A DNA stretch of 64,000 nt from Gammaproteobacteria bacterium (GTDB lineage: Bacteria > Pseudomonadota > Gammaproteobacteria > HyVt-429): positions 13,046 to 77,045 of the forward strand of contig JAADGI010000018.1 of NCBI GenBank assembly GCA_013152415.1, in the 5' to 3' direction. The notes under the pieces were generated by a model. The model did no database searches and was not told the DNA's origin. It was given only the letters and a program-made list of their open reading frames with translations. Within the stretch, counting starts at the first letter, position 1, and the number at the start of each line of letters is the position of its first letter. The position numbers and the translations under genes were made by a program. This document shows, in pieces, positions 5,356-55,464 of the stretch.

Positions 5356-6195
5356 ATGAGCAAACCGACTACACCCACCCATGCCATTGATGTCAGCGCC
5401 CTGACCCACCGGGCCTCTGGTCAGATTGATTTCGAACAGGAAGATATCTGTCTTGAAGTGCAGGATCTCAACCTCTATTACGGGCAGAAACAGGCGCTCA
5501 AAGACATCAATCTGCACATACCTGCAAAACGCGTGACGGCCTATATTGGGCCCAGCGGTTGCGGTAAATCGACCCTGTTACGCTGCTTTAATCGCATGAA
5601 CGATTTAATCGATGTCGTGCGTATCGAAGGTCGCATTCTGCTCGATGAACAGAACATTCATGATTCCTCGATCAATGTTGCCGATCTGCGCAGGCGGGTG
5701 GGCATGGTCTTCCAGAAGCCCAACCCCTTTCCAAAATCGATCTATGAAAATGTCGCCTACGGCTTACGCCTACAGGGTGTCAATGACCGCAGGACCCTGG
5801 ACGAGGCGATAGAAAAGGCATTACGACGCGCCGCACTCTGGGACGAGGTAAAAGACCGTCTAACGGAAAATGCCTTGGGTCTGTCTGGCGGCCAACAACA
5901 ACGTTTGGTTATTGCACGCGCTATTGCCATCGAGCCAGAGGTATTATTGCTTGACGAGCCGGCCTCAGCACTTGATCCTATCTCGACCCTAAAGATCGAA
6001 GAACTCATCTATGAATTAAAAAATAATTACACTATCGTCATCGTTACACATAATATGCAGCAGGCAGCGCGGGTCTCGGACTACACCGCCTTTATGTATC
6101 TCGGTGAGGTCATCGAGTTTGGTGACACCAACACATTGTTCACCAATCCGCAGGAAAAACGCACGGAAGATTATATTACCGGCCGCTACGGCTAA
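5356..6195 (+). CDS. pstB: Phosphate ABC transporter ATP-binding protein PstB
   Basis: Walker [10 protein letters not shown] and signature LSGGQQQR. The length and C-terminus are typical of PstB. Confidence 0.95.
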
Positions 6196-31067: not shown

Positions 31068-31115
31068 GGATCAGCCCTGACATACCAAACTGTCACCGGA
31101 TCTCAACGGCACCCT

Positions 31116-32582: not shown

Positions 32583-32599
32583 CATACTGGCCCCAATCG

Positions 32600-34060
32600 C
32601 TAACAACGTTGACGTTTTGCAAGCTTGGCAGCATGGCTGCCTGAATATATATCAGAGAGTAATTTCAGATAATGCCTGTGCTTGTTTTCCTTGCCTTCAC
32701 GACAAAATGCGGTTGCTAGCATTAAGAGTCCATCTGGCAAGCCAGCCAAATCCTTATCTTTCTTAAGAAGATAGGTGAAGATTTGTTCGGCATTATTAGT
32801 GTAACCACCTTTGGCAAAACAAACCCCCAGTTCGCAAAACTCTTTTGATGACATTCTCATGGTGGGTCTGGCGTGCTTACTATAGTCCGAAAATATCTCG
32901 TTGGCTGTCATCAAATAATGTTGGTCACCCATGCCCATTTTGAGTAATTTAAGAGCGATGCTATGGTAGCCGTCAGACAACGGGTGCATCTTATTGATGC
33001 GATAGAGTTTCACCAACACTTCTTGATCATCGGGGTCGCGTTGTAACATCTCTTTAAACACTCGTTTGGCCTTCTCGAATTCCAATTCCGCCATAAAGTT
33101 CAAACCTCGTTCAAGATCACTTATGCGCCGTTGCTTCTCAGATGACTCATTAATGTAGTCAAAATCTACAGTCCGAAATACCTTCGCTTGCAGCAAACCG
33201 ATTGCTGCACCGCCTAAATACCCCCCAATATGCACGACATAAGCAATCCTCTGGTAGCCATTAAAAACACCATACCACTCGTTCAGCAGCCATAAGGGTA
33301 TAAGAATAATGGCTGGCGCTTTTACAAAATCAAAATAAAAGACTATCCAATAAAAAAATCTTATTTTACGCACACCAAAAAGTACTGAGTAGAGACCCAT
33401 TACTGCACTAATAGCGCCCGAGGCTCCAAGAACCGAACGGTCTGGATACACTAGAGCCCAAAGTCCTATTGACAACAACCCACCCAAAATATAAGAAAAA
33501 AAGAACTGGGTATGTCCTAATATTCGCTCTACTGCAAAACCGACAATGAATAGAAATAGCATGTTGCCCACAAGGTGGCCTAGGCTACCGTGTAGAAATG
33601 CAGATGTTATATATGTAATGGCATCGTTACGATGGAAGGAATAATTATTTGTTACCAAGCGGCCATACATTCGGTCGAATTTAATTCGAGAAAGTTTCCA
33701 TTTAATAAATTTGGGATGCGCGATAGTTATGATTTCATTGCGATGGAGTTTTTCCATAAACTCGCCAGTATATTGAATATCATAGAATATCCACATTGCC
33801 TGTTTATTTTGACTTACTGATTCCCTCACAGAGGCTGAATGTTCATACTCACCAACGCTACTTAGATAATCAGCAAATAGCGGAAACTCTATGACATGCA
33901 ATTTAGCTGCAAAGTAATAGTTTGATGCTTGTGCTAGCCTTTTAGCATCGCCCCCTTGAATAACAAAAAAAACAAATATGTTAATCAGCACTAAAGCGAT
34001 GGTGACAAATGGAGGATTTTTCCAATTAATATTCTTTTCTAGAGGTATGAGTAACAACAC
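32600..34060 (-). CDS. Rhomboid-family intramembrane serine protease with C-terminal TPR-like domain
   Basis: GASGAISAV (GxSG) catalytic serine and a downstream His inside TM helices. The C-terminal third is soluble and helical. Confidence 0.8.
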   Translation of the reverse strand: MLLLIPLEKNINWKNPPFVTIALVLINIFVFFVIQGGDAKRLAQASNYYFAAKLHVIEFPLFADYLSSVGEYEHSASVRESVSQNKQAMWIFYDIQYTGEFMEKLHRNEIITIAHPKFIKWKLSRIKFDRMYGRLVTNNYSFHRNDAITYITSAFLHGSLGHLVGNMLFLFIVGFAVERILGHTQFFFSYILGGLLSIGLWALVYPDRSVLGASGAISAVMGLYSVLFGVRKIRFFYWIVFYFDFVKAPAIILIPLWLLNEWYGVFNGYQRIAYVVHIGGYLGGAAIGLLQAKVFRTVDFDYINESSEKQRRISDLERGLNFMAELEFEKAKRVFKEMLQRDPDDQEVLVKLYRINKMHPLSDGYHSIALKLLKMGMGDQHYLMTANEIFSDYSKHARPTMRMSSKEFCELGVCFAKGGYTNNAEQIFTYLLKKDKDLAGLPDGLLMLATAFCREGKENKHRHYLKLLSDIYSGSHAAKLAKRQRC

Positions 34061-34295
34061 GGCGCTATGAGTTCAACATTGAAGGGCTTGAGCTCTTTAT
34101 AGGGAATTTCAAAATATCATGAAGGAAGTGGCCAAACAACGTTCCACGTTCCTATTTGACAGAGCGCTAAATACAACACAGGGCGTAGCCACAGAGAAAA
34201 GCAATCCACCTCATCGCCCAAACCACTCAATCTCGGTAAGTTTTGAACCCTGCTGGCCCACGCGACCCGGCACCCATCCCATTAAATCGGGGCTA

Positions 34296-34482
34296 AAAAC
34301 CCTAATGCGTTGGGATTAGGGTTTTCTGTAGAGTCCAGACGACCAGTCAGTCTATGGTATGCGCCATCAAGGTATAGAACATATCGCCGTGCCAGGTTTG
34401 ACATGGACGAAGGATGGCAGTCCGCCAAGGAACAGGCACCGGGAGAGTAGCCTGTTGCATAAGGCCCCATGGACGGGGCCTT
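34296..34482. other. Cluster of three perfect hairpins in a 650-bp divergent intergenic region (candidate small RNA or regulatory structure)
   Basis: AAAACCCTAAT-N8-ATTAGGGTTTT (34296-34325), AACAGGC-N12-GCCTGTT (34431-34456) and AAGGCCCC-N6-GGGGCCTT (34461-34482). Confidence 0.4.
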
Positions 34483-39946: not shown

Positions 39947-42900
39947 ATGGATCACGACCCCCTAAGGCGCGTTCTTTTTGTACTGTGGTTGTTGGTGCCA
40001 ACCACACTCTACGCCGCCCCCCTGAAACCCGACCGGGTCCCCGAACCCCTCAAACCCTGGGTCGAATGGGCCCTCCACGGTGAAGAACAAAAGACCTGTC
40101 CCTTCACCTACAACAACGAAAAACAACACTATTGCGCCTGGCCCAGCGAACTGCAACTGGAGCTGGATACACGTCAGGGCCAATTTGAACAACGCTGGCA
40201 AGTGCATAGTGAATCCTGGGCGGCACTGCCGGGCAGCCCCAAACACTGGCCCCAGTCGGTGAAGGTCGATGGCCAACCGGCGGTGGTACTCAACCGTGGC
40301 GGTCGACCCACCCTCAAACTGGCAGCCGGCACACATACCGTTGAGGGCAGGTTCACCTGGGACCGCCTCCCCGAATCCCTGTCCATCCCCAGGACCACGG
40401 GTCTGGTGGGTCTCAAGATCAAAAATCGCACAGTCCCTTTCCCAAATTTGGACACAGGGGGTCGCCTGTGGCTGCGGGAGCGGGATACCGACGCTAACAA
40501 AACCAAGCTAGGGGACCGCGTAGAGGTACAAGTCTATCGACGTATTGGGGACTCGATCCCCATGCAGATCACCACCCGCCTGGACCTCACCGTCTCCGGC
40601 ACCCAGCGGGAGATCGTGTTGGGTCCGGTCCTGCTCACTGAGGCCATTCCCCTGAAACTGAAAAGCACCCTGCCCGTGCGCCTGGAGGCAGACGGTCGCC
40701 TGCGTATACAAGTGCGTCCGGGGCGCTGGCAGATCGACTTGGTGGTGCGGTTCCCCGACCCACGCACCCAGTTGTCGGCCCCCGAGACGGGACCGCCCTG
40801 GCCTAAAGACGAGGTCTGGGTACTCGATGCCCGTAACGCGTTGCGCCTGGTGGAGGTCCAGGGGGTCACTCCTATAGACCCCCGCCAGACCAACCTGCCC
40901 AAGGACTGGAAAGACCTTCCCGCCTATCGCATGGGCAAAGGGGAGGTGTTCTCCCTCAAGATATTGCGTCGCGGTGACCCGTCCCCGGAACCCAATGCCC
41001 TCAAATTGCAGCGTACCCTGTGGCTGGATTTTGACGGCGGCGGTTACACCATCAAGGACAATATCAGTGGCCGCATGACCCAGGGTTGGCGCTTGGCCAT
41101 GTCAAACCCCACCCACCTGGGCCGTGTCACCGTCGACGGCAAACCCCAATTCATCACCCGGCTACAAGGTGAGGCCGAGGACGGCATAGAGGTTCGCCGG
41201 GGCGCCATCAGGCTGGAAGCCGACAGCCGCCTGGATAAAGCTGATCGTCGCCTACCGGTAGTGGGCTGGAACCAGGATTTTCAATCTGTCAGCGGCGAAC
41301 TCAACCTGCCCCCAGGCTGGCGCCTGCTCGCTGCCAACGGTGTGGACAAGGTCCCCGGCACTTGGCTGCAACGCTGGACCCTGCTCGACCTGTTCCTGGT
41401 GTTGATCGCCGCCGTCACCACCCTGCGCCTGTGGGACTGGCGAGGTGGGCTGCTGGCCCTGGTCACCCTGGGCCTGGTCTGGCACGAACCGGGGGCACCA
41501 CAAAATGTCTGGCTCAACATCCTCGCCGCCATCGCGCTGCTGCGGGTGCTGCCCGCCAATCGTTTGCGCACTGCGGTGACGTGGTATCGCAACGCCAGCC
41601 TCCTGGCCCTGGTGTTGATCGCCATCCCCTTCATGATCGATCAGGTACGCACCGGCCTGTACCCGCAACTGGAACGGCCCGGGCAACTTCGGCTCCTCGA
41701 CACACGCACGGATGACCGCCTTGAGATCACAGAACTCGCCGCACCCTTGGTGCAAAAACAGTTACTTGGTGCAATGAAGGCACAGACGGCCAAGCCAAAA
41801 CCCGCCTACAAGGATAAACACACTCGCAAGTTGCGATCAAAAATGCTCTATTCCCCGCAACAACAGGCCATTGACATCAATCAGCAAATCGACCCCAAGG
41901 CCCATATCCAAACCGGACCGGGCATCCCCAACTGGCGTTGGACCCGCATCCCCCTGAGTTGGAGTGGGCCGGTCAAAAAAGATCAAACCATGTCCCTGGT
42001 ATTGCTGTCCCCAGCATCCAATATGATCTTACAGTTTATTCAAATCCTGTTGCTGTTGGCCCTGGCCCTGTTCTTATCAGGGGTGATGCGAATCACAAAC
42101 AAAGGTATCCGCCTGGGCGCCCCCGTTCTGATGGCCGCATTGCTGGCAGGCAACCTGTTGGCACTGACACCCTCACCGGCACAGGCCGACATACCCACAC
42201 CAGAAATATTGAAGACTCTTAAGGAACGTTTGTTGGCACCCCCCGAGTGCCTGCCTCAATGCGCCCAGATTCCACGGCTGCAGTTGCAGCTGTCGCCCCA
42301 CACCTTGAGCGCCCGCATGGAGATACACACCCAGGAGGCCGTGGCGGTACCCCTGCCCGGTCACGCCAAACATTGGTTGCCCACTGAGGTCTTGGTCGAC
42401 GGCAAAATGGCCCAGGGCCTGTTCCGTAAAAATGGTGGGCTGTGGCTACAGCTTGCCCCCGGCAGACACCAAATCCTCATGGCCGGGCCTCTGCCCCAAC
42501 GCAACAATCTGGAATTGCCCCTGCCCCTGCGGCCCCATCATGTGCGCATCACCACCAAGGGGTGGTCCGTGGACGGCGTCCATGAAAACGGGCTTGTCGA
42601 TCAACAACTGCAACTTACCCGCAGTCGCGGCAGCGCCCCCCGCTTGCAGACACTTCAGTCCGACACCCTGCCACCCTTTGTCCGCGTGGTACGCACCCTG
42701 CACCTGGGACTCGACTGGCGGCTCGAGACCCGCGTGGTACGTGCCTCACCCAAGGGTGCGGCAATCTTGCTGGAAGTCCCCCTGCTCGGCAAAGAATCGG
42801 TGACCACCGATGGGGTGCGCATCAAGGATGGCAAAGTCCTGGTCAACATGTCCGCCGGTCAAACACGGATGGTCTGGCATTCAACCCTGGAGAAACAGGA

Positions 42901-44047
42901 CAGTCTCACCCTCACCGCCGCAGACACCTCCCGGTGGGTGGAGCAATGGCGTCTCGATGTGAGTCCCATCTGGCATCCCACCTTCTCCGGCATCCCGGTG
43001 GTACACCACCAAAACCGGGGCCAATGGTTACCCACCTGGCAACCCTGGCCCGGCGAATCCATCACCCTGAAAATACACCGCCCACAAGGCGTGGACGGAC
43101 GGACCCTTACTATTGATAGCAGTCAACTCAGTGTAGAACCCGGTCTACGGGCCACGGACCTGACTCTGAATTTCTCACTGCGCAGCAGTCAGGGCGGACA
43201 ACACACAATTACGATTCCCGAGGGGACACAATTACAATCGGTGACCATCAACAGCCGCCCCCAACCCATACGCCAGGACGGCAACAAGATCACCTTGCCC
43301 GTTGTCCCCGGCAGCCAGCGTGTCGTGCTTAAACTACGCAGCGACCAGGGCATCAAGACCGGGTTGACCACCCCGGCCATCCACCTGGGTGCGGCCAGCG
43401 TGAACCATCGACTGCACCTGACCCTGCCCCGGGATCGCTGGGTCTTGTTTGTAGGCGGACCAGACCTGGGACCGGCGGTGTTATTTTGGGGGGTACTCAT
43501 CGTGTTGGTCCTGTTGGCCTGGGGACTTGGCCGGATACCGTTGACGCCCCTGAAACATTGGCACTGGTTATTGTTGTTGATCGGCCTGAGCCAAGTCCCA
43601 GTATGGACGGGAGCCACCGTCGTGGCCTGGTTACTGGTACTGGGGATGCGGGCACGACTGGACGCAAACATCGGTCAACAACGTTTTGATCTCATGCAGA
43701 TCACCATTGTCCTACTGACCGTGCTCGCACTGTTGTTGTTATTCAACGCCGTGAAACAGGGCTTGCTGGGTACACCGGACATGCAGATTGCCGGTAACGG
43801 CTCCCACGCCTTCCGCCTCAACTGGTACCAGGACCGCAGCGGTGAAACCCTGCCCACCGCTTGGGTCGCATCGGTGCCGCTGTTTATCTACCGGTTTCTT
43901 ATGCTGGCCTGGGCACTATGGTTGGCCTTCGCCCTGCTACGCTGGTTGCGTTGGGGCTGGGAGTGCTTTGCCACCAATGGGCTGTGGCGTAAAGTGGCGG
44001 AAAAGAAAACGACAAAGAAAACAAAAAAGGGCGTCAAGAAAAAGTGA
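39947..44047 (+). CDS. Giant (1366 aa) internally duplicated envelope protein of unknown family, ending in a lysine-rich tail
   Basis: Signal peptide, a periplasmic domain of about 450 aa and a 4-TM cluster, then a second signal-like segment (ALTPSPAQA-D), a homologous second domain and a second TM cluster. It ends KKTTKKTKKGVKKK. Confidence 0.7.
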   Translation: MDHDPLRRVLFVLWLLVPTTLYAAPLKPDRVPEPLKPWVEWALHGEEQKTCPFTYNNEKQHYCAWPSELQLELDTRQGQFEQRWQVHSESWAALPGSPKHWPQSVKVDGQPAVVLNRGGRPTLKLAAGTHTVEGRFTWDRLPESLSIPRTTGLVGLKIKNRTVPFPNLDTGGRLWLRERDTDANKTKLGDRVEVQVYRRIGDSIPMQITTRLDLTVSGTQREIVLGPVLLTEAIPLKLKSTLPVRLEADGRLRIQVRPGRWQIDLVVRFPDPRTQLSAPETGPPWPKDEVWVLDARNALRLVEVQGVTPIDPRQTNLPKDWKDLPAYRMGKGEVFSLKILRRGDPSPEPNALKLQRTLWLDFDGGGYTIKDNISGRMTQGWRLAMSNPTHLGRVTVDGKPQFITRLQGEAEDGIEVRRGAIRLEADSRLDKADRRLPVVGWNQDFQSVSGELNLPPGWRLLAANGVDKVPGTWLQRWTLLDLFLVLIAAVTTLRLWDWRGGLLALVTLGLVWHEPGAPQNVWLNILAAIALLRVLPANRLRTAVTWYRNASLLALVLIAIPFMIDQVRTGLYPQLERPGQLRLLDTRTDDRLEITELAAPLVQKQLLGAMKAQTAKPKPAYKDKHTRKLRSKMLYSPQQQAIDINQQIDPKAHIQTGPGIPNWRWTRIPLSWSGPVKKDQTMSLVLLSPASNMILQFIQILLLLALALFLSGVMRITNKGIRLGAPVLMAALLAGNLLALTPSPAQADIPTPEILKTLKERLLAPPECLPQCAQIPRLQLQLSPHTLSARMEIHTQEAVAVPLPGHAKHWLPTEVLVDGKMAQGLFRKNGGLWLQLAPGRHQILMAGPLPQRNNLELPLPLRPHHVRITTKGWSVDGVHENGLVDQQLQLTRSRGSAPRLQTLQSDTLPPFVRVVRTLHLGLDWRLETRVVRASPKGAAILLEVPLLGKESVTTDGVRIKDGKVLVNMSAGQTRMVWHSTLEKQDSLTLTAADTSRWVEQWRLDVSPIWHPTFSGIPVVHHQNRGQWLPTWQPWPGESITLKIHRPQGVDGRTLTIDSSQLSVEPGLRATDLTLNFSLRSSQGGQHTITIPEGTQLQSVTINSRPQPIRQDGNKITLPVVPGSQRVVLKLRSDQGIKTGLTTPAIHLGAASVNHRLHLTLPRDRWVLFVGGPDLGPAVLFWGVLIVLVLLAWGLGRIPLTPLKHWHWLLLLIGLSQVPVWTGATVVAWLLVLGMRARLDANIGQQRFDLMQITIVLLTVLALLLLFNAVKQGLLGTPDMQIAGNGSHAFRLNWYQDRSGETLPTAWVASVPLFIYRFLMLAWALWLAFALLRWLRWGWECFATNGLWRKVAEKKTTKKTKKGVKKK

Positions 44048-44080
44048 ATATCCTCTCCCTCCAGGAGAGGGAATGAAGTC

Positions 44081-44100
44081 ATTCTGGCAAAAGCCAGAAT
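44081..44100 (+). terminator. Hairpin (8-bp stem ATTCTGGC/GCCAGAAT, AAAA loop) after the giant gene, followed by an AT-rich, T-biased stretch
   Basis: Seen directly, 34 nt after the stop codon. Confidence 0.45.
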
Positions 44101-44344
44101 CCAGTAATTATTTAATTCTTTGTCGCTGAGGCACAAAGAAAGACCCGTACTTCTTGGCTCTGGGATAAAACGCAAAGGTCGCGGAGGCGCCAAGGACGCA
44201 GAGATATAAAACAATCCAAACCGGACTATCCAAACATGGAAAGATACACCTCTATCTGGAACAATATATCCATAATATGGAAAGTGAATTTAATAACACT
44301 ATTATCTGTATAAATAAAATCGCGCCACGTATATGAATTAGAGA

Positions 44345-45211
44345 ATGGAAGAAATACATAACATAATAAAAAAATACAATAAAGGTCATGTTGATGATAG
44401 CCTGAATTCCTTAGAGGATATCAAAGCCTTTTCGCTGGTGTTTTTTAAAGATGTTTCAGAAGTATATGATTGCATAACGAGATTAAAAAACACAAAAAGG
44501 AACCCCACTGGGTATTCATTAGATGATGCGCCTATAATTGCGTTATTAGTTAAAATATGGAAACTTCTTAAAGAAATAATTGTGTATTATGAAAAAGACA
44601 ATGCTGAAATAATTAGTTTATTTGAACGCCCGCTAATCGAATCTTCAGTGACGGCTAGTTATTTATTAAAATCAAACAGCCAAGCAATAGAAGACTATAG
44701 AAAAATATCTTACAAAGATCGCTTGAGGATATTACGAGAACTAAAAGAAGGATCTGCTTTCTACGAGACAAAAGCCGGAAAAAGATTATTGAAATCTGTT
44801 CAAGAAAAAATGAATTTTGAAAAGTTGACAATTGATGACTTTCAAGAACAAAAACGAAATAGATGGCGGTTACAAAACAAGTCTTTTTTCGATATTTTCA
44901 AGGAGATTGAAGGGAAAGATCTTTACGCTTGTACATACGGCATGATGTCTGAAGCTGTACATTGCTCTTGGAATGACTCTTTAGATTGGTGTCTAAGTAA
45001 AAACGATGATGATACTTTTGATGTTTATCCTTTCTACCAAACCGCTGACATTCGTCACATATCGCCAACTTTAGTATTTTGCAATCGACCATATAAACTT
45101 TGGCTGCAACACATAGATATAACAGATACATATATAAATGATGTGTTGCAGTGGATTGAAAATATAAACTCTATGATATATGTTGCCTTCGATGAATTAT
45201 ATGATGAGTAA
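44345..45211 (+). CDS. Hypothetical protein in low-GC island (about 33% GC)
   Basis: 288-aa ORF with strongly AT-biased codon usage, unlike the surrounding sequence. No family recognised. Confidence 0.6.
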   Translation: MEEIHNIIKKYNKGHVDDSLNSLEDIKAFSLVFFKDVSEVYDCITRLKNTKRNPTGYSLDDAPIIALLVKIWKLLKEIIVYYEKDNAEIISLFERPLIESSVTASYLLKSNSQAIEDYRKISYKDRLRILRELKEGSAFYETKAGKRLLKSVQEKMNFEKLTIDDFQEQKRNRWRLQNKSFFDIFKEIEGKDLYACTYGMMSEAVHCSWNDSLDWCLSKNDDDTFDVYPFYQTADIRHISPTLVFCNRPYKLWLQHIDITDTYINDVLQWIENINSMIYVAFDELYDE

Positions 45212-45482
45212 AAATACGGCTAACAAACTCAAGAGGACAAAGAAGAAAGGGGGCAGATCACTTGCTTCATAACACATGCACCTTGCTCAGGCCGCCACAC
45301 ATTGAATACAAAAATCAGACACCTGGGACACGCATAAATTACTTGGCCTCACTAAATTAGTGAGGAAATTTTAACGGTACGTTTTGCATATCGCCATAAC
45401 GTGATCCGAAAAACAATCGAGGTCAGACACCGTAGAATAGCCATAAAGTCCTTGAAGAAAATATTTTAGGTAAAAACGAGAG

Positions 45483-46130
45483 ATGCTTAGCTACTGTGAA
45501 GTCATAAAATTTTATGACGCGTTCGGCAAGAGACAGGACAAACAATTCTACGAGAAAGCGGCAATTAACGATCTGATTGAACAGGGTCAATTTGACGAGG
45601 CAAAAAATATAATAGAATTTGGTTGTGGCACCGGGAAGCTGGCATCTCGTTTATTGGCCTGTATCACGCCTGACAGTTGCCATTATTTAGGGGTCGATAT
45701 CAGCCAAACCATGGTCTCTCTTTGCCGAAAAAATATTGGGTCCTTTTCAGAACGTGCAACATGCTATAAAACTGAAGGGGAATCGAGAATAGATGCCCCA
45801 GATCAAACTGCCGACCGATTTATTTCCACCTATGTGCTCGACTTGCTGACCGAAGAAGACGCCATAAGCCTGCTAAACGAGGCACATCGAGTACTCCTGC
45901 CAGGGGGGTATTTGTGCCTCGCCAGTTTAACCCATGGCATTTCGTTCGTTTCACGTATTGTAGAGATTTTATGGCGCAGGCTGTACCAATTAAAACCCTT
46001 TATTGTAGGCGGCTGCCGCCCAATAAATTTAAAAAAATACCTGCAAAATGATCAATGGCATGTTGTTCATGACCCGGTCATTGTGTCTTACGGTGTTCCA
46101 TCGGAAGTGGTAATCGCAAAAAGGCTATAA
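45483..46130 (+). CDS. Class I SAM-dependent methyltransferase (small-molecule type)
   Basis: Motif I IEFGCGTGKL and motif post-I/II (LLPGGYLCL). About 42% GC. Confidence 0.75.
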   Translation: MLSYCEVIKFYDAFGKRQDKQFYEKAAINDLIEQGQFDEAKNIIEFGCGTGKLASRLLACITPDSCHYLGVDISQTMVSLCRKNIGSFSERATCYKTEGESRIDAPDQTADRFISTYVLDLLTEEDAISLLNEAHRVLLPGGYLCLASLTHGISFVSRIVEILWRRLYQLKPFIVGGCRPINLKKYLQNDQWHVVHDPVIVSYGVPSEVVIAKRL

Positions 46131-46275
46131 ACCGTAGAATCGGGGGCAATTCACTTGAAATGGGATAAATCCGTGGGTTAAGGTGTGCCACGCATACCTG
46201 ACCCTTGGGCTGGTCCTTGGGGGTTTAATACCGTCACCCACAGCAAACAAACCTTCTAACCGGAGATCCTGTTAC

Positions 46276-46689
46276 ATGAATCATAGATGGCTATGGCTGC
46301 TTTTAGCAATTTTTAGTGGAAATGCACAATCGTTTCAACCATCAATAGAAATTATTGAACAATTTGATGATGTTAAGCTGGTTGCATTTATAAATGAAAC
46401 CGATATTGAAAATTATCCCCTGTGGCACCCATTAACAGAAGCGCCGCCTTTGTCCGTAAGCAAGGCAATTCAAGCCATCAAAGATCTGTACAAGACAAAC
46501 CGTGATCAGTTGCTTCCAAAGTCGGTCAAGGAAATAGAACTAAGAGAGCTGTCACGGCATGAATATTACTGGCACTATCTGGTTAAGGTAAAGACCAATG
46601 ACGACAAAAAACCTAAATATCAAATTTACGTGGTTTTAATGAACGGAAAAGTAATCCCTGCATTGATTGAATCAGAGTCATACAAATAA
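46276..46689 (+). CDS. Small secreted hypothetical protein
   Basis: Signal peptide (LWLLLAIFSGNAQS) and a GGAGA RBS. About 38% GC. Confidence 0.5.
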   Translation: MNHRWLWLLLAIFSGNAQSFQPSIEIIEQFDDVKLVAFINETDIENYPLWHPLTEAPPLSVSKAIQAIKDLYKTNRDQLLPKSVKEIELRELSRHEYYWHYLVKVKTNDDKKPKYQIYVVLMNGKVIPALIESESYK

Positions 46690-47118
46690 CACGCAAGCTC
46701 ACAAAGACACCCCATAGCCACCCAAAATGATAACCCACACCTCGTACACTTGCGGGGAAATGAGCAGATTCTCTCAAATCCTGATGTTTTAACGAGGCAC
46801 TCTGGGTTTGTGTTCTGACCTCATACAATTTACCAAGTAAAAATGCAGTCTTGCCGCGTAGGATATATTTTTTTACCTTTCTCGTCGCATGATGTTGGGT
46901 TGTCTTACTTAGCTTGGTGAGACTTGGAATTGGGGACAGGAAATCTGTAAGTGTTATCCCAAAATGGAATAGGGCCTTGATCTTTTGCTTTAAAAAGACC
47001 AGTCGGGAATAGGCCAGGATATGAGCTCCTTGAAGAGCGATAGTGAAGCCCCCATATAGACTATACTAAACAGTGAACCCTGATCTTTTATCCACCACTA
47101 TTTCGTAATGGAGGACTT

Positions 47119-47394
47119 ATGAGAATCAACATTATGGCTCTATCTGTTACCGCCGCATTGTTTTGGGGTATAGCAATCTTTATCACTGCCTCCGCGAACC
47201 TGGTCTGGCCGGGTTACGGCAGTGCCTTCCTTGAGCTTGCGGCCTCCATATACCCAGGATTCAACCCTGGCACCGGCATGGGATCTGTCATTACAGGAAC
47301 ACTTTATGGATTAGTGGACGGGGCAATATGCGGTGCCATATTCGGCTGGCTCTACAATCTTCTGGCACGCAAGTTTCCGGGTACGGCCACCTAA
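47119..47394 (+). CDS. Small glycine-rich membrane protein (91 aa, 2-3 TM)
   Basis: Hydrophobic ORF with a GGAGGA RBS. Confidence 0.5.
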   Translation: MRINIMALSVTAALFWGIAIFITASANLVWPGYGSAFLELAASIYPGFNPGTGMGSVITGTLYGLVDGAICGAIFGWLYNLLARKFPGTAT

Positions 47395-47428
47395 CCCAAA
47401 CAAAAAGGGGAAGAATTTGAGCAAAAAG

Positions 47429-47464
47429 AAATGACTGTCCTTGTTTTGTCAGGGACAGTCATTT
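47429..47464. terminator. Strong hairpin (12-bp stem AAATGACTGTCC/GGACAGTCATTT) flanked by an A-tract on the + strand and a T-tract on the - strand, possible bidirectional terminator
   Basis: Lies between the convergent genes 47119-47394 (+) and 47619-48284 (-). The minus-strand reading gives hairpin then CTTTTTG. Confidence 0.6.
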
Positions 47465-47618
47465 AGAAATACAAGCTGACAATCGCTTTGGCCAGTTTGT
47501 GACAAACATCCCCACCCTCTCCCCACAAAAATCCTTGGCGTGGGAAGGAGGGCTACGCCGGGTTTGGTGTTTATACTGAACCAGACCCACTCATTGTCTC
47601 AACTCTAAACAGCCCTTT

Positions 47619-48284
47619 TTAACTGTTGCTGTTTCCACCGTTGTCATTTTTATTGTCGTCTTCATTTTCGTTACCATTATCGTTCCCATGTCCCTCGGAA
47701 CCGTTGTCATTGCCACTATTGTCATTGGCACCATCATCATGATTGTCATTGCCATCATTATCGGAACCGTTGCCATTGCCACCATTGTCATCATGGGGTG
47801 CACTGGTGACACTGCCGACACTGGCCTGACCACTATTGGTGTTCAGGCTAACGTTGCTCATCGTCGTCGTAGCACTTGCCTGTGCGTTCACTGAAACTGA
47901 TGCTGTACCACCGGTCTGGGTTTGGAATGTGACAGTCTGCGCACCGGGGGTGGTGCTCATGGAAAAATTACCCGCATCGTCAGTTGTGGTAGAGGACCCG
48001 GATGAAGAGGTTACCGTAATACCCCCCACGCCACCGGTCTGCGCAAGTACCGGTGCAATCACCCAATCCAGCACCCGAACCAACGTATGCTGACGTATAA
48101 CAGGGGCCAACTCGGGTCCAAATACCTTATTCAAGGCGACTACGGTCACAACGTTACCATTAAGTATGGCAGAACCACTGCCGCCACCTGTACTGGTGCC
48201 ACCACCCCCGCAGCTTACCAGTACAATTGTTAATATCCCGATGATCAAATGACGAAAAGCTACAGGGCGGGTTTTTGGGGTCAT
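47619..48284 (-). CDS. Lipoprotein with a beta-sandwich (carboxypeptidase-regulatory-like) domain and an Asp/Asn/Gly-rich low-complexity C-terminal tail
   Basis: Lipobox LVSC, Gly-rich linker, then a long DNGN-type repeat tail (NDNGGNGNGSDNDGNDNHDDGANDN...). Confidence 0.7.
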   Translation of the reverse strand: MTPKTRPVAFRHLIIGILTIVLVSCGGGGTSTGGGSGSAILNGNVVTVVALNKVFGPELAPVIRQHTLVRVLDWVIAPVLAQTGGVGGITVTSSSGSSTTTDDAGNFSMSTTPGAQTVTFQTQTGGTASVSVNAQASATTTMSNVSLNTNSGQASVGSVTSAPHDDNGGNGNGSDNDGNDNHDDGANDNSGNDNGSEGHGNDNGNENEDDNKNDNGGNSNS

Positions 48285-48583
48285 GGCAAATTCCTCTTGG
48301 TCTAACGGTTAACTTCCTGCCGAACCGGACCCTCTCATTGGGCAATAAATCAGGATATTGACCTATTCTAGAGTCACCACGCCAAACACGGGCAACTGCT
48401 CAATGATAAAGGCAGGCGCTTACGGCATAAGTGTAGGCACTGATCTCAGTTATTTCATGGGGCATCCGTACTATACGGTACCATTCTGGTACATATGTCC
48501 GATCAGGCCCCCTTTGAAATGGTGTACCTGCAGACAGAACCCATGGCCCTGGTATCAAAAAAAAGAGGGGAGGCGTGCCGGAC

Positions 48584-49522
48584 CTAGTCTTTATCCTGAA
48601 CCAATTCCACCCGTCGGTTCAATGTGCGGCCTGCATCAGTCAGGTTTGTCGCAGCCGGTGCCAAATAACCCACGCCATCACTCTTAAGACGCGTCGCAGC
48701 GATCTTATAATCGGAAACCAGGGCGTTCATTACCGCCTTGGCACGGCGCTTCGAGAGGCTCATATTGTAGTCATAACCACCCACATAATCGGTATGGCCA
48801 ACAACGATGATCTTAAGGCTCGGCTGACTCTTAAGTAGTTTCGCAATTTCTCCCAAAGTAGGCTTTGAGTTGGGCTTGATGGTCGCGCTGTTGTAGTCAA
48901 AATATATACCGTACAAGGCAACACGACCGGTTTCCGCCATACTCATTTGCATTTTTTTGGCATCCACCATCTGCATTTCCATGGCCTTGGTTTCGGCGGC
49001 AATCAAACCAACCCGCATCCCGTTACCCCCACCGTGGGGGGCCACCAACACAGAGATATAATTCTTTGCCCCGGAAACATCTTTAGCCGCGACGAAATAA
49101 TGGAAGCCACTCCCCAGGGCCGCTTCTTTTACAATATCAACTGGGTGTTTATACTTAAACACATAATCATTGATTTTATCCGGGCCACCGGAAAAAATCA
49201 TTTCGTAGTTTGCCTCTTTGATACGTACTTCAAAATTACGAAACACCTCCAGAGCTGAGATACCCTTGGGCACACGATAGAAGATCCTTGTAATTTTACC
49301 CTCTACAGTTAATGCGGTCTTTTCGGCATCGCTGTCCTTTTTTACAGGCCCGGTGGCAAATACTGTCTTGCCATAATTCTCGACTTTATAGTCAACAATT
49401 TCAGAGCCCTTAAAACGGCCGATATTGGGGTAATCTTCACTACCTTGCACATCCGCTGCCAAAACCACGGCTTGCAGGGCGATTAGACTGATTCCTGCCA
49501 CAGTAGCAACTATATATTTCAT
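48584..49522 (-). CDS. OmpA-family protein (N-terminal domain of unknown function plus C-terminal OmpA/MotB peptidoglycan-binding domain)
   Basis: Signal peptide. C-terminal OmpA-like motifs (GHTDYVGGYDYNMSLSKRRAKAV, NRRVE). The start is set at MKYIV with a GAGGTG RBS. The longer ORF upstream overlaps the TrpB2 gene. Confidence 0.85.
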   Translation of the reverse strand: MKYIVATVAGISLIALQAVVLAADVQGSEDYPNIGRFKGSEIVDYKVENYGKTVFATGPVKKDSDAEKTALTVEGKITRIFYRVPKGISALEVFRNFEVRIKEANYEMIFSGGPDKINDYVFKYKHPVDIVKEAALGSGFHYFVAAKDVSGAKNYISVLVAPHGGGNGMRVGLIAAETKAMEMQMVDAKKMQMSMAETGRVALYGIYFDYNSATIKPNSKPTLGEIAKLLKSQPSLKIIVVGHTDYVGGYDYNMSLSKRRAKAVMNALVSDYKIAATRLKSDGVGYLAPAATNLTDAGRTLNRRVELVQDKD

Positions 49523-49595
49523 CTTTGTCACCTCGTATGGATACCCAATATCCGTTGGATAAGCCCTGACCCCAGCTTTTATGAATGAACTGAAG

Positions 49596-50954
49596 CTAGC
49601 CTTCGGCGATCTTTGGAATATTTTGCATCGATTTTTTGATCGCCTCTTCAGGGTAATCAAAATCTTCAAGCTCACCACTGAAGTAACGGTCATAGGCTGC
49701 CATATCAAAATGCCCGTGGCCCGATAGATTAAAGAGCAGTGTCTTTGCCTCACCCGATCTTTTGCAAGCCAAGGCCTCGTCAATACAGGCACGAATGGCA
49801 TGATTAGACTCAGGTGCGGGGATAATGCCCTCGGCCTTGGAGAACATGACGCCCGCTTCGAAGGTGGCAATCTGTGGCACAGCAATCGCCTCGATCAAAC
49901 CCTCGTTGTAGAGTTGTGAGACCAATGCGGAGTCACCGTGGTAGCGTAGCCCCCCTGCGTGGATGCCCGGTGGCATGAAGTCATGCCCCAGGGTGTACAT
50001 CTTCATCAACGGCGTCATGCCTATGGCATCACCAAAGTCATAGGCATATTTTCCCTTGGTCAGGGTAGGACAGGATGTCGGCTCGACCGCAACCAGGCGC
50101 ACATTTTTACCCGCCGCGTTATCGGCAAAGAAGGGAAAGGCAATGCCGCCAAAATTCGAACCGCCGCCACAGGGGGCAAACACCATGTCCGGATAATCTC
50201 CGGCCACCTCAAATTGTTTCTTTGCCTCCAGACCGATGATGGTCTGGTGCAGCAAGACATGATTGAGCACCGAACCCAGTGAATAGTTGGTGTCATCACG
50301 ACCGGCGGCCTCTTCAACGGCCTCGGAGATGGCAATCCCCAAAGAACCTTCCGAGTCCGGGTCTTGTGCCAGAATATTGCGCCCTGCCTCGGTCTGGTCG
50401 GTGGGGCTGGCCAAGACCTCGGCACCCCATGCCTGCATCATGGAACGGCGAAAGGGTTTTTGCCCATAGCTCACCTTGACCATGTAGACATGCACATCGA
50501 TACCAAACATCTGCCCCGCCAGGGCCAGCGCACAACCCCATTGCCCGGCACCCGTCTCTGTCGACAGGCGCTTTATGCCCGCCTCCTTGTTGTAATACGC
50601 CTGTGGGGTGGCGGTATTGGGCTTGTGTGAACCGGCAGGGCTAACACCTTCGTATTTGTAATAAATCTTTGCCGGTGTCCCCAACATCTGCTCTAAACGA
50701 TGCGCCCGGTACAGCGGACTGGGCCGCCACAGGCGGTAAATCTCACGCACCGGTTCCGGGATATCGATCCAACGTTGTGCGGAGACCTCCTGCTCGATCA
50801 GTGCCATGGGGAAAATGGCCGCCAGGGCCTCCGGACCAATGGGCTGGCCATCCGGACCCAGCGGAGGGGTCGGGGGGTTCGGCATATCGGCCACCACGTT
50901 GTACCACTGTTTCGGGATATCGGACTCATCAAGAAAAATTTTTGTATTTGACAC
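49596..50954 (-). CDS. TrpB-like PLP-dependent enzyme (tryptophan synthase beta paralogue, TrpB2 type)
   Basis: 452 aa. The PLP-binding lysine is in the SHK context. The N-terminal extension is typical of TrpB2. Confidence 0.85.
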
Positions 50955-51110
50955 AATTTTCTCCCCTGTACATTTTTAAGAATGTAGACATGCTATCACT
51001 AATGCCCTCTAAACCGACAAATGAAGGTCCTCACGACTGTAATCTACTTTAGATCGCGCTCGACTCTAAAAAACCTATGCGCTATGTATTAAACAAAACC
51101 ACAGAAGTTC

Positions 51111-52556
51111 TCAACCAGGATGCGCCAAAGAACCTGCATAGAATACATTACAACGCTTACCACTAAGCAATTTAAGTGGCGCGGTGAGTGCGCCACTCAC
51201 CGGTGCAGTAATAGCCTTAAAAAAGCTGGGTTTCTCAATGGTAGGGTTGTCCAGAGCACCGTGGATCTTCTGGCTAAACGTCGCACAACCCTTTTTGTTG
51301 AGCACGGCAACAGTCATTCCATCAATATATCTGCTCACCAGATTGATGCGGCCACGCAAGGCAACACGGTTTTTGATTGTGGTGAAGGCGACGTCCTCCG
51401 CACGGGCAATGCCGTCTTTGATCGACCAACGTGAAACAAATTGATCCAGAGTCCCGGTGGCACCGGATGTGGCCTTGGCCACATTAGACAACTCCCGCCC
51501 CTTGACCATGGCCGTACCCCATGGCCCCATGAACATGAATGCGCCCAGATCCACTAGATTGATACGCTGTACCTTTTTGATTCGATCGAGCAGTTTATCG
51601 ACATTCACCCCATGCAAGGTGATCCCCTCTCCATTGACCAGGGTTTCGCCACCAAGGGTGGCCAGCATATTCTGCAGCGTCATGCCCTCCCAATGTAGAT
51701 TAACACTGGCACGGGCCGGCCCAGACATCACCGCTTGCTCGGACACGGTCTCCAACAATCTGGCGATATCGAAACCTTCCAGCTCAAATTGAAAATCCAT
51801 TTTGGCTATGGTCTTTGATTGATCAACGATGAGTTGCCCCTGGCCATGACCTTCAAATAGATTTGCACTCAGATTATTAAAACGTACCACCGGCCCAGAT
51901 TTTATTACCGACGATTTTATCTTGTTTATAGACGTATAAGGTGTTTGCAGCGATCTGATAGACAGTTTGCCGCTGGCCGACACACTGGAACCGTCATGCC
52001 TGCCTATGGATTTCAATTCGGAGCTATGGAGATGGAATTGGGCATCAACAAACCGTAAGGGCTGTCTCCAATTGGCCCGGCTAAAACTAATATCGGCATT
52101 TTGGATGCTCACATCACCGCTGTCCGCGATCTTTATCCTGAAACCATAGGGAATTGATGTCTCAGAACCATGACCTATACCCGAGGTGACCAGGCCCAGT
52201 TTGGATTCTGAAGTCAGGGAGATCTGCGGTGATATTAGATTGATGCGTTCAAATTGCAGCACTCGATCAAACAACGGTTTAATAGCGAGGTCCAACCGAA
52301 CTTTTTTCAGTGCGACAACTTGCCGACCGTCCTTGATAATGCGCGGCTTGCTGAGGACGAGCCCAAGGGTGGGAAACACCGTAAAGCTCAAGGGCCCATC
52401 CAGAATAACCTGGGCATCCAAGGCCTTGGAAGCCATGGCAGCGAGCTGTGGCCGATAGGCATTGAGGTCCACATAGCGGGCGATTAAAAAAGGTGCCGAA
52501 CCGATCAGAACAGCGAAGAAAATGAATAACAGGATCAGTCGTTTTATAAATTTCAA
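51111..52556 (-). CDS. AsmA family outer-membrane assembly protein
   Basis: N-terminal TM anchor, then a long beta-rich periplasmic domain with an AsmA-like N-terminus (YRPQLAAMASKALDAQV). Confidence 0.75.
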   Translation of the reverse strand: MKFIKRLILLFIFFAVLIGSAPFLIARYVDLNAYRPQLAAMASKALDAQVILDGPLSFTVFPTLGLVLSKPRIIKDGRQVVALKKVRLDLAIKPLFDRVLQFERINLISPQISLTSESKLGLVTSGIGHGSETSIPYGFRIKIADSGDVSIQNADISFSRANWRQPLRFVDAQFHLHSSELKSIGRHDGSSVSASGKLSIRSLQTPYTSINKIKSSVIKSGPVVRFNNLSANLFEGHGQGQLIVDQSKTIAKMDFQFELEGFDIARLLETVSEQAVMSGPARASVNLHWEGMTLQNMLATLGGETLVNGEGITLHGVNVDKLLDRIKKVQRINLVDLGAFMFMGPWGTAMVKGRELSNVAKATSGATGTLDQFVSRWSIKDGIARAEDVAFTTIKNRVALRGRINLVSRYIDGMTVAVLNKKGCATFSQKIHGALDNPTIEKPSFFKAITAPVSGALTAPLKLLSGKRCNVFYAGSLAHPG

Positions 52557-52589
52557 CGCCAGGCCGCCTCCATCGACACGCCTCTCACC

Positions 52590-54592
<2,003 letters not shown>

Positions 54593-54770
54593 GCCAACCT
54601 AAACAATTGCGCCGCCCAATGCAAGAAGGCCCATGAGATACAAAGGTTTTGGCGGCATCCTGTCTGCCCCGAGCCCGTTCGGCACCTGCTTGCACATCCC
54701 CCGTAAACCGCTTACCCTTAGCCGTTCTTATACCAAATATATCAGCCAGATTCAGACACAAGAGATAGCG

Positions 54771-55424
54771 ATGGATTTCGAGCAGGCACGTTTTAACATG
54801 GTGGAACAACAGATCCGCCCCTGGGCAGTGTTGGACCCACGCGTACTGGATCTGATTGGCCAGCTATACCGGGAAGATTTTGTCCCCAAGCAATATCGCA
54901 AATTGGCTTACGCCGATATGCGTATTCCCTTAGGTCATGACCAGGTCATGATGGCCCCCAAGACTGAAGCAAGATTACTCCAGGAATTGGAAATCAATCC
55001 TCAAGATCGGATGCTGGAAGTCGGCACCGGCAGTGGTTACCTAACCGCACTGTTGGCACGCTCTGGTGCGGAGCTTGTCAGCCTGGAAATTTATTCAGAC
55101 CTCGCCAATGAGGCAGAAAAAAGACTCGCGGCCCACAGTATCTCCAATGTCACCGTCGTCACTGGCGACGCGGCCGACACATATGGTAAATACGGTTTAT
55201 TCGATGTCATCGTGTTAACAGGTTCAGTACCACACATGCCGAATCACTATAGAAAAATACTGAACAAGGGAGGTCGTTTAGCCGCCATCGTTGGTCAGTC
55301 CCCCGCCATGGAAGCCATTGTCAGCACCCGGATGAGTGAACACAATTGGGTGGAACGTAGTGTGTTTGATACCGACCTGCCACGACTGATCGGGGTAGAT
55401 GAAGCACCCAAGTTTGTCTTTTAA
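54771..55424 (+). CDS. pcm: Protein-L-isoaspartate O-methyltransferase (Pcm)
   Basis: SAM-binding motif LEVGTGSGY. The length is about 217 aa from MDFEQ. Confidence 0.85.
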   Translation: MDFEQARFNMVEQQIRPWAVLDPRVLDLIGQLYREDFVPKQYRKLAYADMRIPLGHDQVMMAPKTEARLLQELEINPQDRMLEVGTGSGYLTALLARSGAELVSLEIYSDLANEAEKRLAAHSISNVTVVTGDAADTYGKYGLFDVIVLTGSVPHMPNHYRKILNKGGRLAAIVGQSPAMEAIVSTRMSEHNWVERSVFDTDLPRLIGVDEAPKFVF

Positions 55425-55464
55425 TAGCCCACAAAACTCGTTCTTTACGGCACAAAGTGCCTCT

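Follow-up and report, generated by a model that had tools for sequence, protein, structure and literature searches.

Does the low-GC tract that follows the giant gene in this genome represent a single inserted island, and do its three genes form a functional system? The window, which is the whole 64-kb stretch of DNA analysed, has a GC content of 0.516, and the giant gene (39947-44047) has a GC content of 0.601. Downstream of the giant gene lie three co-oriented ORFs on the forward strand, encoding proteins of 288, 215 and 137 aa: gene 1 (44345-45211; GC 0.322), gene 2 (45483-46130; GC 0.443) and gene 3 (46276-46689; GC 0.372). The start of gene 3 is the ATG at 46276, internal to a listed GTG ORF of 46183-46689. 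Against 870-nt windows outside the island (mean GC 0.521, sd 0.043, minimum 0.378), gene 1 is the strongest GC drop of the window, with z of −4.7, and the span 44100-46700 has a GC content of 0.387, with z of −3.9. The true extent of the low-GC tract is about 44050 to 47100. The first-pass annotation of this DNA had reported the GC drop and the gene sizes (288-aa, small methyltransferase, 137-aa), and had taken the three genes for one inserted island. The drop is real (32% over gene 1 versus 60% over the giant gene and 52% overall), and the ORF listing bears out the sizes.

Gene 1, described earlier as having no recognisable family, does have one. Specifically, residues 61-221 of the 288-aa protein match profile positions 1-164 of 166 of Pfam DUF5677 (PF18928), with an E-value of 3.4e-24 and 86.2 bits (gathering threshold 27.1); this is a full-length match, with nothing that sets the protein apart from the family. 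The gene is intact and has 747 homologs, among them sequences from Vibrio, Pseudomonas, Shewanella, Marinobacter, Verrucomicrobia and Stappia at 60-66% identity. Members of the subfamily, which is patchily distributed, share 56-85% identity across Gamma- and Alphaproteobacteria and Verrucomicrobia. An alignment of 38 subfamily sequences has a mean column identity of 77%, and all 76 invariant columns are present in the protein of the window. The closest homolog with flanking sequence, that of locus L015, shares 84% amino-acid identity with the window protein, and the dN/dS of 0.054 between the two genes indicates strong purifying selection. A single domain in about 290 aa is the usual architecture for DUF5677. 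Longer relatives carry tandem DUF5677 copies or unannotated extensions, and no informative domain fusion is found among them.

Synteny separates gene 3 from genes 1 and 2. The closest relative found is L144, from an Acidiferrobacteraceae MAG (GCA_011052015.1). A block on the forward strand at 46147-46731, consisting of a 130-nt leader, gene 3 (the secreted-protein gene) and the 42 nt that follow its stop codon, has 84% DNA identity to L144 1923-2492. The downstream genes lipo221, PALP, AsmA, ThiC, PCMT and KdtA are syntenic as well, with DNA identity of 78–86% over the block and these genes. The gene 3 ortholog of L144 is likewise low in GC (0.33, compared with 0.37 in the window), and neither DUF5677 nor the methyltransferase gene is present in L144, whose sequence upstream of the ortholog covers 2 kb to the contig end. 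Gene 3 is thus best read, on gene order, as a resident backbone gene of the lineage that happens to be low in GC, with no insertion. The proposal of one inserted three-gene island fails on this synteny and on co-occurrence: each of the three is found without the other two in all 98 DUF5677, 3 methyltransferase and 7 secreted-protein loci. The comparison that had been suggested for setting the boundaries, made here through L144, assigns gene 3 to the backbone. Gene 1 and probably gene 2, but not gene 3, suit the earlier description of the tract as foreign DNA that is old or was inserted illegitimately, and the counter-possibility raised alongside it, that the island is core in all relatives, holds for gene 3 only. 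Synteny via the giant gene is uninformative on the boundaries: its 43 relatives are only 40-55% identical and have no neighbours in common with the window.

Genes 1 and 2 are 271 bp and 12 percentage points of GC apart. Most of the gap is taken up by a stretch of 163 nt (45225-45387) that has no L144 counterpart and no attC-like fold, and that includes the repeat GGGGGCAGATCACTTG once (45249-45264) as well as a perfect palindrome at 45343-45362. It is followed by a backbone segment on the forward strand, 45388-45413, in which 24 of 26 nt are identical to L144 1700-1725 (E = 5e-4 in a search of the 1.2 Mb of fetched loci). Because this L144-shared segment lies between genes 1 and 2, we argue for independent arrival or loss; its position suggests that two separate events were involved. 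In L144, other short colinear DNA matches fall on the DUF5677 stop-codon junction and on the final 55 nt of the methyltransferase gene, while a search of L144 at the protein level found no pseudogene remnants of either gene. The two genes may be older than the split from L144 and may have been lost there instead of gained here. Such relics, which hint that genes 1 and 2 predate the split, and the AT-richness of syntenic gene 3 in both lineages would also suit a history in which nothing is foreign, the three genes being native ones that are simply rich in AT. That history is very improbable, as DUF5677 is missing from L144 and from all 43 loci around relatives of the giant gene, the relatives nearest to it, at 60-85% identity, come from a scatter of unrelated phyla, and its GC3 is 0.29, compared with 0.52-0.72 in neighbouring core genes.

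Gene 2 encodes a small class I SAM-dependent methyltransferase, as the first-pass annotation had called it. The protein scores 58 bits on Methyltransf_25 (cutoff 27), Methyltransf_11, 12 and 31 are above cutoff too, and residues 45-51 form the glycine-rich motif I, EFGCGTG. The curated models it matches best, among them CpaM, UbiE, BioC and CmoA, describe small-molecule or tRNA enzymes, and every one of these matches falls far short of its cutoff. Read by eye, the 215-aa sequence contains neither the DNA-methyltransferase motif IV, (D/N/S)PP(Y/F/W), nor the C5 motifs PC/ENV. Judged from its sequence, the enzyme is of a generic small-molecule type. Homologs with 70-73% identity occur in Ghiorsea and gammaproteobacterial MAGs, and in two loci (L061 and L062) the homolog is followed by an attC or attC-like sequence. 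In the window, short direct repeats bracket the gene, with ACCGTAGAAT at 45429 and 46131 and GGGGGCAnnTCACTTG at 45249 and 46142.

The adjacency of genes 1 and 2 had led to the speculation that a defence or toxin-like gene is paired here with a methyltransferase as its modification or immunity partner, whose task would be to modify the cell's own DNA or to neutralise DUF5677 in some other way. The two genes are indeed adjacent and co-oriented, and, as in restriction-modification and methylation-associated defence systems (MADS), a methyltransferase stands beside an uncharacterised gene in a low-GC patch. A PADLOC search, proposed as a check, gives the methyltransferase a partial match (E = 3.9e-15) to mad2, a component of the methylation-associated defence system. 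This match, however, spans only profile positions 261-424 of 492, the generic Rossmann core that binds SAM; MTase_II is matched at E = 0.016 only, and the other components of such systems are absent, as are the DNA-methyltransferase motifs. DUF5677, the 137-aa protein, the giant gene and the two downstream genes have no match in PADLOC-DB v2 at E ≤ 0.1. No methyltransferase homolog is found in the 98 DUF5677 loci (488 kb), nor DUF5677 in the 3 methyltransferase loci, and the immediate neighbours of DUF5677 homologs are singletons in 109 of 117 cases, with no recurrent partner. The wide gap with a backbone segment inside it and the difference in GC also speak against a pair, and a two-gene module is very improbable. 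Each gene would instead act alone, and the methyltransferase, rather than a modification or immunity partner, would be an accessory gene that is unrelated to gene 1 and whose gain or loss was a separate event.

The homologs of gene 1 point to how it may have travelled. A covariance model of attC built from 20 sites, many of them out of the same loci, and liable to miss divergent sites, finds 46 attC sites in 84 DUF5677 loci, 45 of which are co-oriented with the gene. It also recovers sites on which it was not trained (L007 6591-6666 and 5307-5381). An attC directly flanks the DUF5677 gene in 24 of 83 loci (17 upstream, 15 downstream, 8 on both sides), and no flanking attC is present in the other 59 (about 70%). 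L015 is a canonical cassette, with attC at 535-633 and 1534-1623, and L011 has an attC at 2011-2100. The attC alignment yielded no consensus structure in RNAalifold, and the structure was taken from per-sequence constrained folds instead. An initial scanner that combined a regular expression with folding energy scored 24 of 79 loci, compared with 7 of 79 after shuffling; it overlooked sites in which the first box and the stop codon overlap, and was replaced by the covariance model.

The window copy retains what appears to be one piece of such a site. Six nucleotides after the DUF5677 stop codon, at 45218-45224 on the forward strand, is the heptamer GGCTAAC. The same heptamer occurs 5-7 nt past the stop codon in L015 and L011, where it opens a model-verified attC (54.4 and 47.5 bits, respectively). 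DNA identity between the window and L015 extends over the coding sequence and 15 nt beyond the stop codon, where it runs through TAAAAATACGGCTAACAA and into GCTAACAA, and then ends. By our own arithmetic, the chance of GCTAAC within a 20-nt window is about 0.004. We interpret GGCTAAC as the surviving first box (R'') of the attC of the cassette, the remainder of the site being missing. A cassette origin of the window copy is thus suggested mainly by its homologs, together with one short motif, a relic of 7-9 nt.

No attC is recognised by the covariance model in the whole 64 kb with filters off (best 12 bits, E = 1.6) or inside 43900-47300 (best 5 bits, E = 3), and 45212-45300 has no significant fold (z = +0.5). 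Three candidate sites were rejected. A single attC split by the methyltransferase gene and gene 3 would have its partner arm in 45245-47200, where the best score is 18 and the background reaches 24. A long degenerate attC at 45218-45387 (GGCTAAC...GTTTTGC) has a constrained fold of −10.3 kcal/mol with z of −0.3. A hairpin with boxes resembling R and L after gene 3, at 46732-46808, reaches z of only −0.4 and −0.6 and is unscored by the model.

Relatives of the organism carry attC near gene 3. L144 has a canonical attC 1.7 kb upstream of its gene 3 ortholog, scoring 68.6 bits with a model that had this site in its training set. Another MAG (L147/L148) has a gene 3 homolog as the last member of a co-oriented array of small genes, toxin-antitoxin genes among them. 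The attC there scores 55 bits by construction, L148 being a training sequence and L147 a near-identical copy, and the gene content of the array is therefore the independent observation.

Taken with the synteny, these features favour a reading to which we give a probability of roughly 0.6: the low-GC tract is a variable region of mosaic composition that contains a decayed cassette, the DUF5677 copy having been cassette-borne and later stranded, and its genes are independent. The mosaic would lie between the giant gene and the conserved backbone block and would constitute neither a single island nor a functional three-gene system. DUF5677 would be a stand-alone member of a strongly conserved, horizontally travelling subfamily, often found as a single-gene cassette. 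The window copy most likely entered as a cassette, inserted at a secondary site or into a cassette array formerly present at the locus, and later loss of attC would have fixed it in place. The analysis shows that gene 1 belongs to DUF5677, that attC flanks homologs of it, that attC and an integron integrase are lacking here, that the three genes are independent of one another and that gene 3 is syntenic. We infer the route of entry, as well as the order and age of the events and any cellular role of DUF5677.

The gene could also have come in by a non-integron route: DNA acquired through transformation or conjugation might, for example, have recombined homologously, or a plasmid or integrative element might have supplied the gene by illegitimate recombination. 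GGCTAAC would then be a coincidence or a passenger. Some DUF5677 copies do reside in other vehicles, for example after traN on the Vibrio cholerae IncC-type plasmid pW7G; most homolog loci have no flanking attC; and attC, integrase and target duplication are all missing here. We nevertheless regard this route as unlikely, because the heptamer matches the first attC box of the two nearest cassette-borne homologs in both place and sequence, and because relatives of the organism have attC upstream of the gene 3 ortholog, although those sites trained the model.

As to mobility signals, the window contains no intI gene, no tRNA and no transposase. Its sole tyrosine recombinase is XerC, 27 kb off at 16474-17385, which scores 366 bits on TIGR02224 but, on the integron-integrase model TIGR02249, only 120 bits where the cutoff is 265. 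No flanking direct repeats of 20 nt or more are present, only short ones, and no target duplication was found at the locus. The first-pass annotation was thus right that integrase, tRNA and long direct repeats are lacking.

Among known systems, a classic integron cassette, the form in which homologs of gene 1 occur, has a single gene and a co-oriented attC at each boundary. The window gene keeps only the first attC box, in the right place, and the following attC (R''-L''...L'-R', 50-150 nt) is absent. The window contains no complete integron (intI, attI and cassette array), as it lacks intI. CALINs are defined by at least two attC sites within 4 kb and a missing integron integrase (Cury et al. 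2016, PMC4889954). The tract is CALIN-like in that no integrase is near it and relatives have attC at the equivalent locus, but it has no recognisable attC of its own. Without attC, it is at most a decayed relic, no longer mobilisable by an integron integrase. A classical genomic island would share the sharp compositional anomaly adjoining a gene end; here, in contrast, tRNA, integrase or transposase and long flanking repeats are absent, and the pieces have differing histories. The apparent three-gene island is a compositional artefact. A sharp GC trough can mix foreign and resident genes, and island boundaries therefore need synteny beyond composition. For the host genome the tract carries little weight, as an ordinary variable spot where accessory genes come and go.

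DUF5677 might still act in conflict on its own, as a single-protein anti-phage or other effector that is present here as a fossil cassette, which would be compatible with the cassette origin. Homologs in L007 and L008 lie amid Schlafen AlbA_2, GmrSD_N and a ZorA-like gene, that of L014 is beside DUF4365, and GajA/LmuB-like ATPases or pPIWI-associated nucleases occur as neighbours in a few cases. Selection on the gene is strong and its transfer wide. Integron cassettes are reported in a preprint (bioRxiv 10.1101/2024.07.02.601686) to be rich in defence systems, and the DUF5677 domain is enriched near defence-linked serine recombinases in Bacillota (PMC12632615). In that study, however, the one DUF5677 ORF tested was outside the five of nine candidates that protected E. 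faecalis against six phages (PMC12632615). Moreover, any one family accounts for only 2-3 of the 117 immediate neighbours, many of which are housekeeping genes; DUF5677 has no match in PHROG, as in PADLOC, and is unmentioned in the supplements of two integron-cassette screens; the fusions are uninformative; and the predicted fold (pLDDT 86, pTM 0.85) is unmatched in the PDB and BFVD. We consider a single-protein effector doubtful on balance. A fuller version, equally tentative, is that the subfamily is a self-contained conflict effector (e.g., anti-phage or anti-plasmid) with a novel all-helical fold, which would spread mainly as a one-gene cassette and be kept here by selection after immobilisation. 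What is new on DUF5677 is that the subfamily is often cassette-borne, that it has no conserved partner, and that its predicted all-helical fold has no counterpart among solved structures. Because the gene is intact, strongly constrained, often cassette-borne and partnerless, with no solved structural homolog, the subfamily is a well-defined target for ongoing integron-cassette function screens.

The intergenic pieces share no detectable homology among the four of them, and 43000-48500 contains no Rfam family at E ≤ 1. The AT-rich leader of gene 1 (44101-44344; about 30-37% GC) resembles none of 151 fetched loci. It has no recognisable GTTRRRY box, the upstream cassette boundary expected 10-40 nt before the start codon, and no more promoter-like matches than shuffles. 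The similarity of 44300-44323 to the L015 cassette leader, convincing by eye, does not exceed chance, as 197 of 500 shuffles reach the same score. At the other end, the downstream spacer (46690-47118; 40-42% GC) measures 429 bp, in agreement with the AT-rich spacer of about 430 bp noted before, and from 46732 to 47118 it is not common to L144. The hairpins noted on the upstream flank are also present. Specifically, two tandem stem-loops follow the stop codon of the giant gene on the forward strand, at 44052-44070 and 44081-44100, with a folding energy of −24 kcal/mol (z = −3.6) that none of 200 shuffles equals. Neither fits a stem-plus-T-run terminator pattern in a scan, and no repeat of 44052-44100 was found elsewhere in the window. 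The pair is probably a transcript-end structure of the giant gene, outside any mobile element.

The tract at ~44050–47100, downstream of the giant gene, is a mosaic of three pieces with different origins: a probable stranded cassette carrying DUF5677, a small methyltransferase unrelated to it, and a low-GC gene that is resident. The GC content is 0.322 for the first gene (44345–45211), 0.443 for the second (45483–46130) and 0.372 for the third (46276–46689), compared with 0.601 for the giant gene (39947–44047) and 0.516 for the whole window. The first gene has a z-score of −4.7 when set against every 870-nt window taken outside the tract (mean 0.521, sd 0.043, minimum 0.378). The compositional anomaly is genuine, and the 64-kb window has none stronger. 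The three co-oriented ORFs of the first-pass annotation are all present, at 288, 215 and 137 aa, the last with an ATG start codon at 46276. The flanks are also as it described: two tandem hairpins follow the stop codon of the giant gene (44052–44100, z = −3.6), and a 429-bp AT-rich spacer (~41% GC) lies 3’ of the third gene. As it had noted, no tRNA was found in the 64-kb window. XerC (16474–17385, minus strand; TIGR02224, 366 bits) is the sole tyrosine recombinase of the window; it is 27 kb from the tract, adjoins a homolog of PRK10963 (hypothetical protein), and is unrelated to the island.

The product of the first gene (GXP09_07440 in the source record, a Gammaproteobacteria MAG), initially assigned to no recognisable family, is a full-length Pfam DUF5677 protein (PF18928, 86 bits versus a cutoff of 27). 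Searches of PADLOC, PHROGs and NCBIfam gave no matches. Homologs with 60–85% identity are present in Vibrio, Pseudomonas mendocina, Shewanella, Marinobacter, Marinomonas, Stappia, Magnetovibrio and Verrucomicrobia. The gene is intact and constrained, because the window protein keeps all 76 invariant columns in an alignment of 38 homologs (mean column identity 77%), with dN/dS of 0.054 relative to L015, the nearest homolog locus with flanking sequence. The family is small: of 1.84 billion representatives, 415 clusters (50% identity) match at E ≤ 1e-3. Its few longer members consist of DUF5677 copies in tandem or carry unannotated extensions. The AlphaFold model is all-helical (pLDDT 86, pTM 0.85). 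The predicted fold has no match in PDB or BFVD, and a sequence-profile search found no solved relatives.

Judging from their flanking sequences, DUF5677 homologs are frequently integron cassettes. Specifically, GGTCGTTAGTT precedes the gene in L015, and GCTAACAATGCGCTGCAG...AAGCGTTAGCG begins 7 nt past its stop codon, which are attC-type flanks; P. mendocina (L001) and a further locus, L011, have similar ones. A covariance model of attC sites (R1) was built from 20 aligned sites, with R/L box pairing taken from constrained folds, and recovers sites outside its training set (L007 6591–6666, 33.7 bits; L007 5307–5381). Over 84 DUF5677 loci, R1 detects 46 attC sites, 45 of them on the same strand as the gene, and an attC directly abuts the gene in 24 loci (17 upstream, 15 downstream, 8 on both sides). 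Other homologs occupy different variable contexts, e.g., after traN in a V. cholerae IncC-type plasmid. The 117 immediate neighbours include at most three members per Pfam family, and comparing all of them with one another leaves 109 singletons; because no family recurs among them, DUF5677 is a solitary gene. In the MAG contigs L007/L008, a co-oriented cassette array holds two tandem DUF5677 paralogues with a 234-aa gene 24 nt downstream, as well as Schlafen AlbA_2, GmrSD_N and ZorA-like proteins.

The window and L015 are ~85% identical in DNA through the coding sequence of the first gene, and the identity continues past the stop codon for 15 further bases (TAAAAATACGGCTAACAA versus TAAAGACACAGCTAACAA), then ends. 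This extension places GGCTAAC (45218–45224) where the L015 and L011 attC sites have their first (R'') box; we calculate that GCTAAC would fall in a 20-nt window with a chance of ~0.004. No partner arm was found downstream of GGCTAAC, and no fold in 45212–45300. With filters off, R1 reaches at best 12 bits over the 64 kb and 5 bits within 43900–47300, revealing no further attC remains, and the upstream cassette boundary is not recognisable. A 170-nt attC candidate does not fold and was ruled out; the similarity of the gene leader to that of L015 is good by eye, yet is equalled by 197 of 500 shuffles. The tract fits neither an integron nor a CALIN (a cluster of attC sites lacking integron integrase) as published (PMC4889954); the most fitting description is that of a fossil cassette. 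Between the DUF5677 and methyltransferase genes, the spacer also contains a perfect palindrome, CCTCACTAAATTAGTGAGG, with an 8-bp stem (45343–45362).

The third gene is part of the backbone. Its product, a secreted protein, has no more than 98 homologs, almost all of them from gammaproteobacterial MAGs, including one with 89% identity in the closest available relative, an Acidiferrobacteraceae MAG (L144–L146). Synteny with L144 begins 17 nt past the methyltransferase stop codon and covers the third gene with its leader (46147–46731, 84% identity), a lipoprotein (lipo221; 47567–48314, 78%), a PALP enzyme (49597–50968, 86%), and AsmA, ThiC and PCMT (51111–55425, 81%). Because the L144 ortholog is only 33% GC, low GC is native to this gene, which is not to be counted as inserted. 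Neither DUF5677 nor the methyltransferase was found in L144. An attC lies at L144 125–196, 1.7 kb upstream of the ortholog, and in another MAG (L147/L148) the homolog is last in a co-oriented, attC-containing array of toxin–antitoxin and other small genes, which makes a cassette array or remnants upstream of this gene plausible for the lineage. The L144 and L148 sites are R1 training sequences and the L147 site is a near-identical copy of the latter, so the L147 and L148 scores are not independent tests of R1. A repeated ~60-nt element, TAATCGGG..GGTCTCTAACCCCCAG.CCCACA..CACCC.GCATG, follows genes in these relatives' arrays (L144 ~640–700; L148 ~330–400 and 1120–1190) and is absent from the window.

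No homolog of this methyltransferase or of the third gene occurs in 98 DUF5677 loci (488 kb), and none of the three methyltransferase loci and seven third-gene loci contains either of the other two genes. Between the first and second genes, 45388–45413 matches L144 1700–1725 at 24 of 26 nt (E = 5e-4); because backbone sequence lies between them, the comparison points to separate events. The observation of the first-pass annotation is thus confirmed, and its foreign-island interpretation is supported in part: a probable stranded DUF5677 cassette is present, but the three genes are not one unit, and L144 synteny makes the third resident. L144 1687–1722 reads TAAAGATACGGCTA followed directly by TATCGCC..., which the window carries as two halves separated by 165 nt (45209–45222 and 45388–45410). 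The first half consists of the DUF5677 stop codon and the next 11 nt, a hint that L144 once had, then lost, the cassette. Moreover, L144 1723–1925 and the final part of the methyltransferase gene have 16 8-mers in common, last codons and stop included (3.0 ± 2.3 in shuffles). Together with direct repeats bracketing that gene, GGGGGCAnnTCACTTG (45249–45264, 46142–46157) and ACCGTAGAAT (45429–45438, 46131–46140), these hints allow both genes to be older than the split from L144 and lost there. The repeats may be a footprint of the event that placed the methyltransferase gene.

The second gene encodes a small class I SAM-dependent methyltransferase (215 aa), as first proposed, with Methyltransf_25, 11, 12 and 31 above cutoffs. 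The best curated matches (CpaM, UbiE, BioC and CmoA) are all far under cutoffs, the nearest solved relatives are CmoA-type enzymes (E ~1e-6), and a PADLOC mad2 match covers the methyltransferase core only. Homologs with 70–73% identity are present in Ghiorsea bivora and several MAGs. The Ghiorsea homolog has an attC-like sequence after its stop codon (18.5 bits, E = 0.14), and in MAG locus L062 a canonical attC, itself in the R1 training set, lies 415 nt downstream of the homolog; a past as a cassette is thus possible for this family too, on thinner evidence than for DUF5677. In L062 (GCA_964654445.1, 5001–10666), the homolog (71% identity) is 2.8 kb upstream of a 1371-aa giant-gene homolog (41%), with the attC (6081–6154) between them. 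This pairing may be coincidence, since the methyltransferase is missing from all 43 other giant-gene loci.

That the methyltransferase is a modification or immunity partner of the first gene, as had been suggested, is very improbable: the two do not co-occur in the 98 DUF5677 or three methyltransferase loci, and the enzyme's sequence contains no (D/N/S)PP(Y/F) or C5 motif of DNA methyltransferases. A conflict or defence role for DUF5677 is doubtful. A few homologs lie beside Schlafen, GmrSD, ZorA-like, GajA/LmuB-like or pPIWI-nuclease genes, but most neighbours are unrelated to defence. Defence systems are reportedly abundant among integron cassettes (bioRxiv 10.1101/2024.07.02.601686), and PMC12632615 picked out the domain in the vicinity of serine recombinases linked to defence, but the single DUF5677 ORF assayed in that study was not among the protective candidates. 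The main remaining value of the tract is DUF5677, a clean candidate for screens of cassette function.

Other features were noted in the window. A 91-aa membrane protein resembling NCBIfam bacteriophage holin_4 (47119–47394, plus strand; 55 bits, cutoff 70) falls within 46732–47566, which is unshared with L144; L144 has a 709-aa gene there. An OmpA/DUF4892 gene (48584–49885, minus strand) between the lipoprotein and PALP genes has no L144 counterpart and marks a further insertion or deletion within this variable stretch; its true start is probably an internal ATG (MKYIVATVAG...), because the listed ORF overlaps the PALP gene start. The giant gene (plus strand, 1366 aa) is atypical toward high GC (60%, GC3 0.72) and has no family matches in Pfam, NCBIfam or PADLOC; its relatives (40–55% identity), in Methylococcales, Thiodiazotropha, Burkholderiales and other MAGs, never have the same neighbours. 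A second low-GC patch (31100–34300, 40–42%) contains a convergent pair, one gene encoding a 488-aa protein that weakly matches a B-box zinc finger and the other a 486-aa rhomboid-domain protein.
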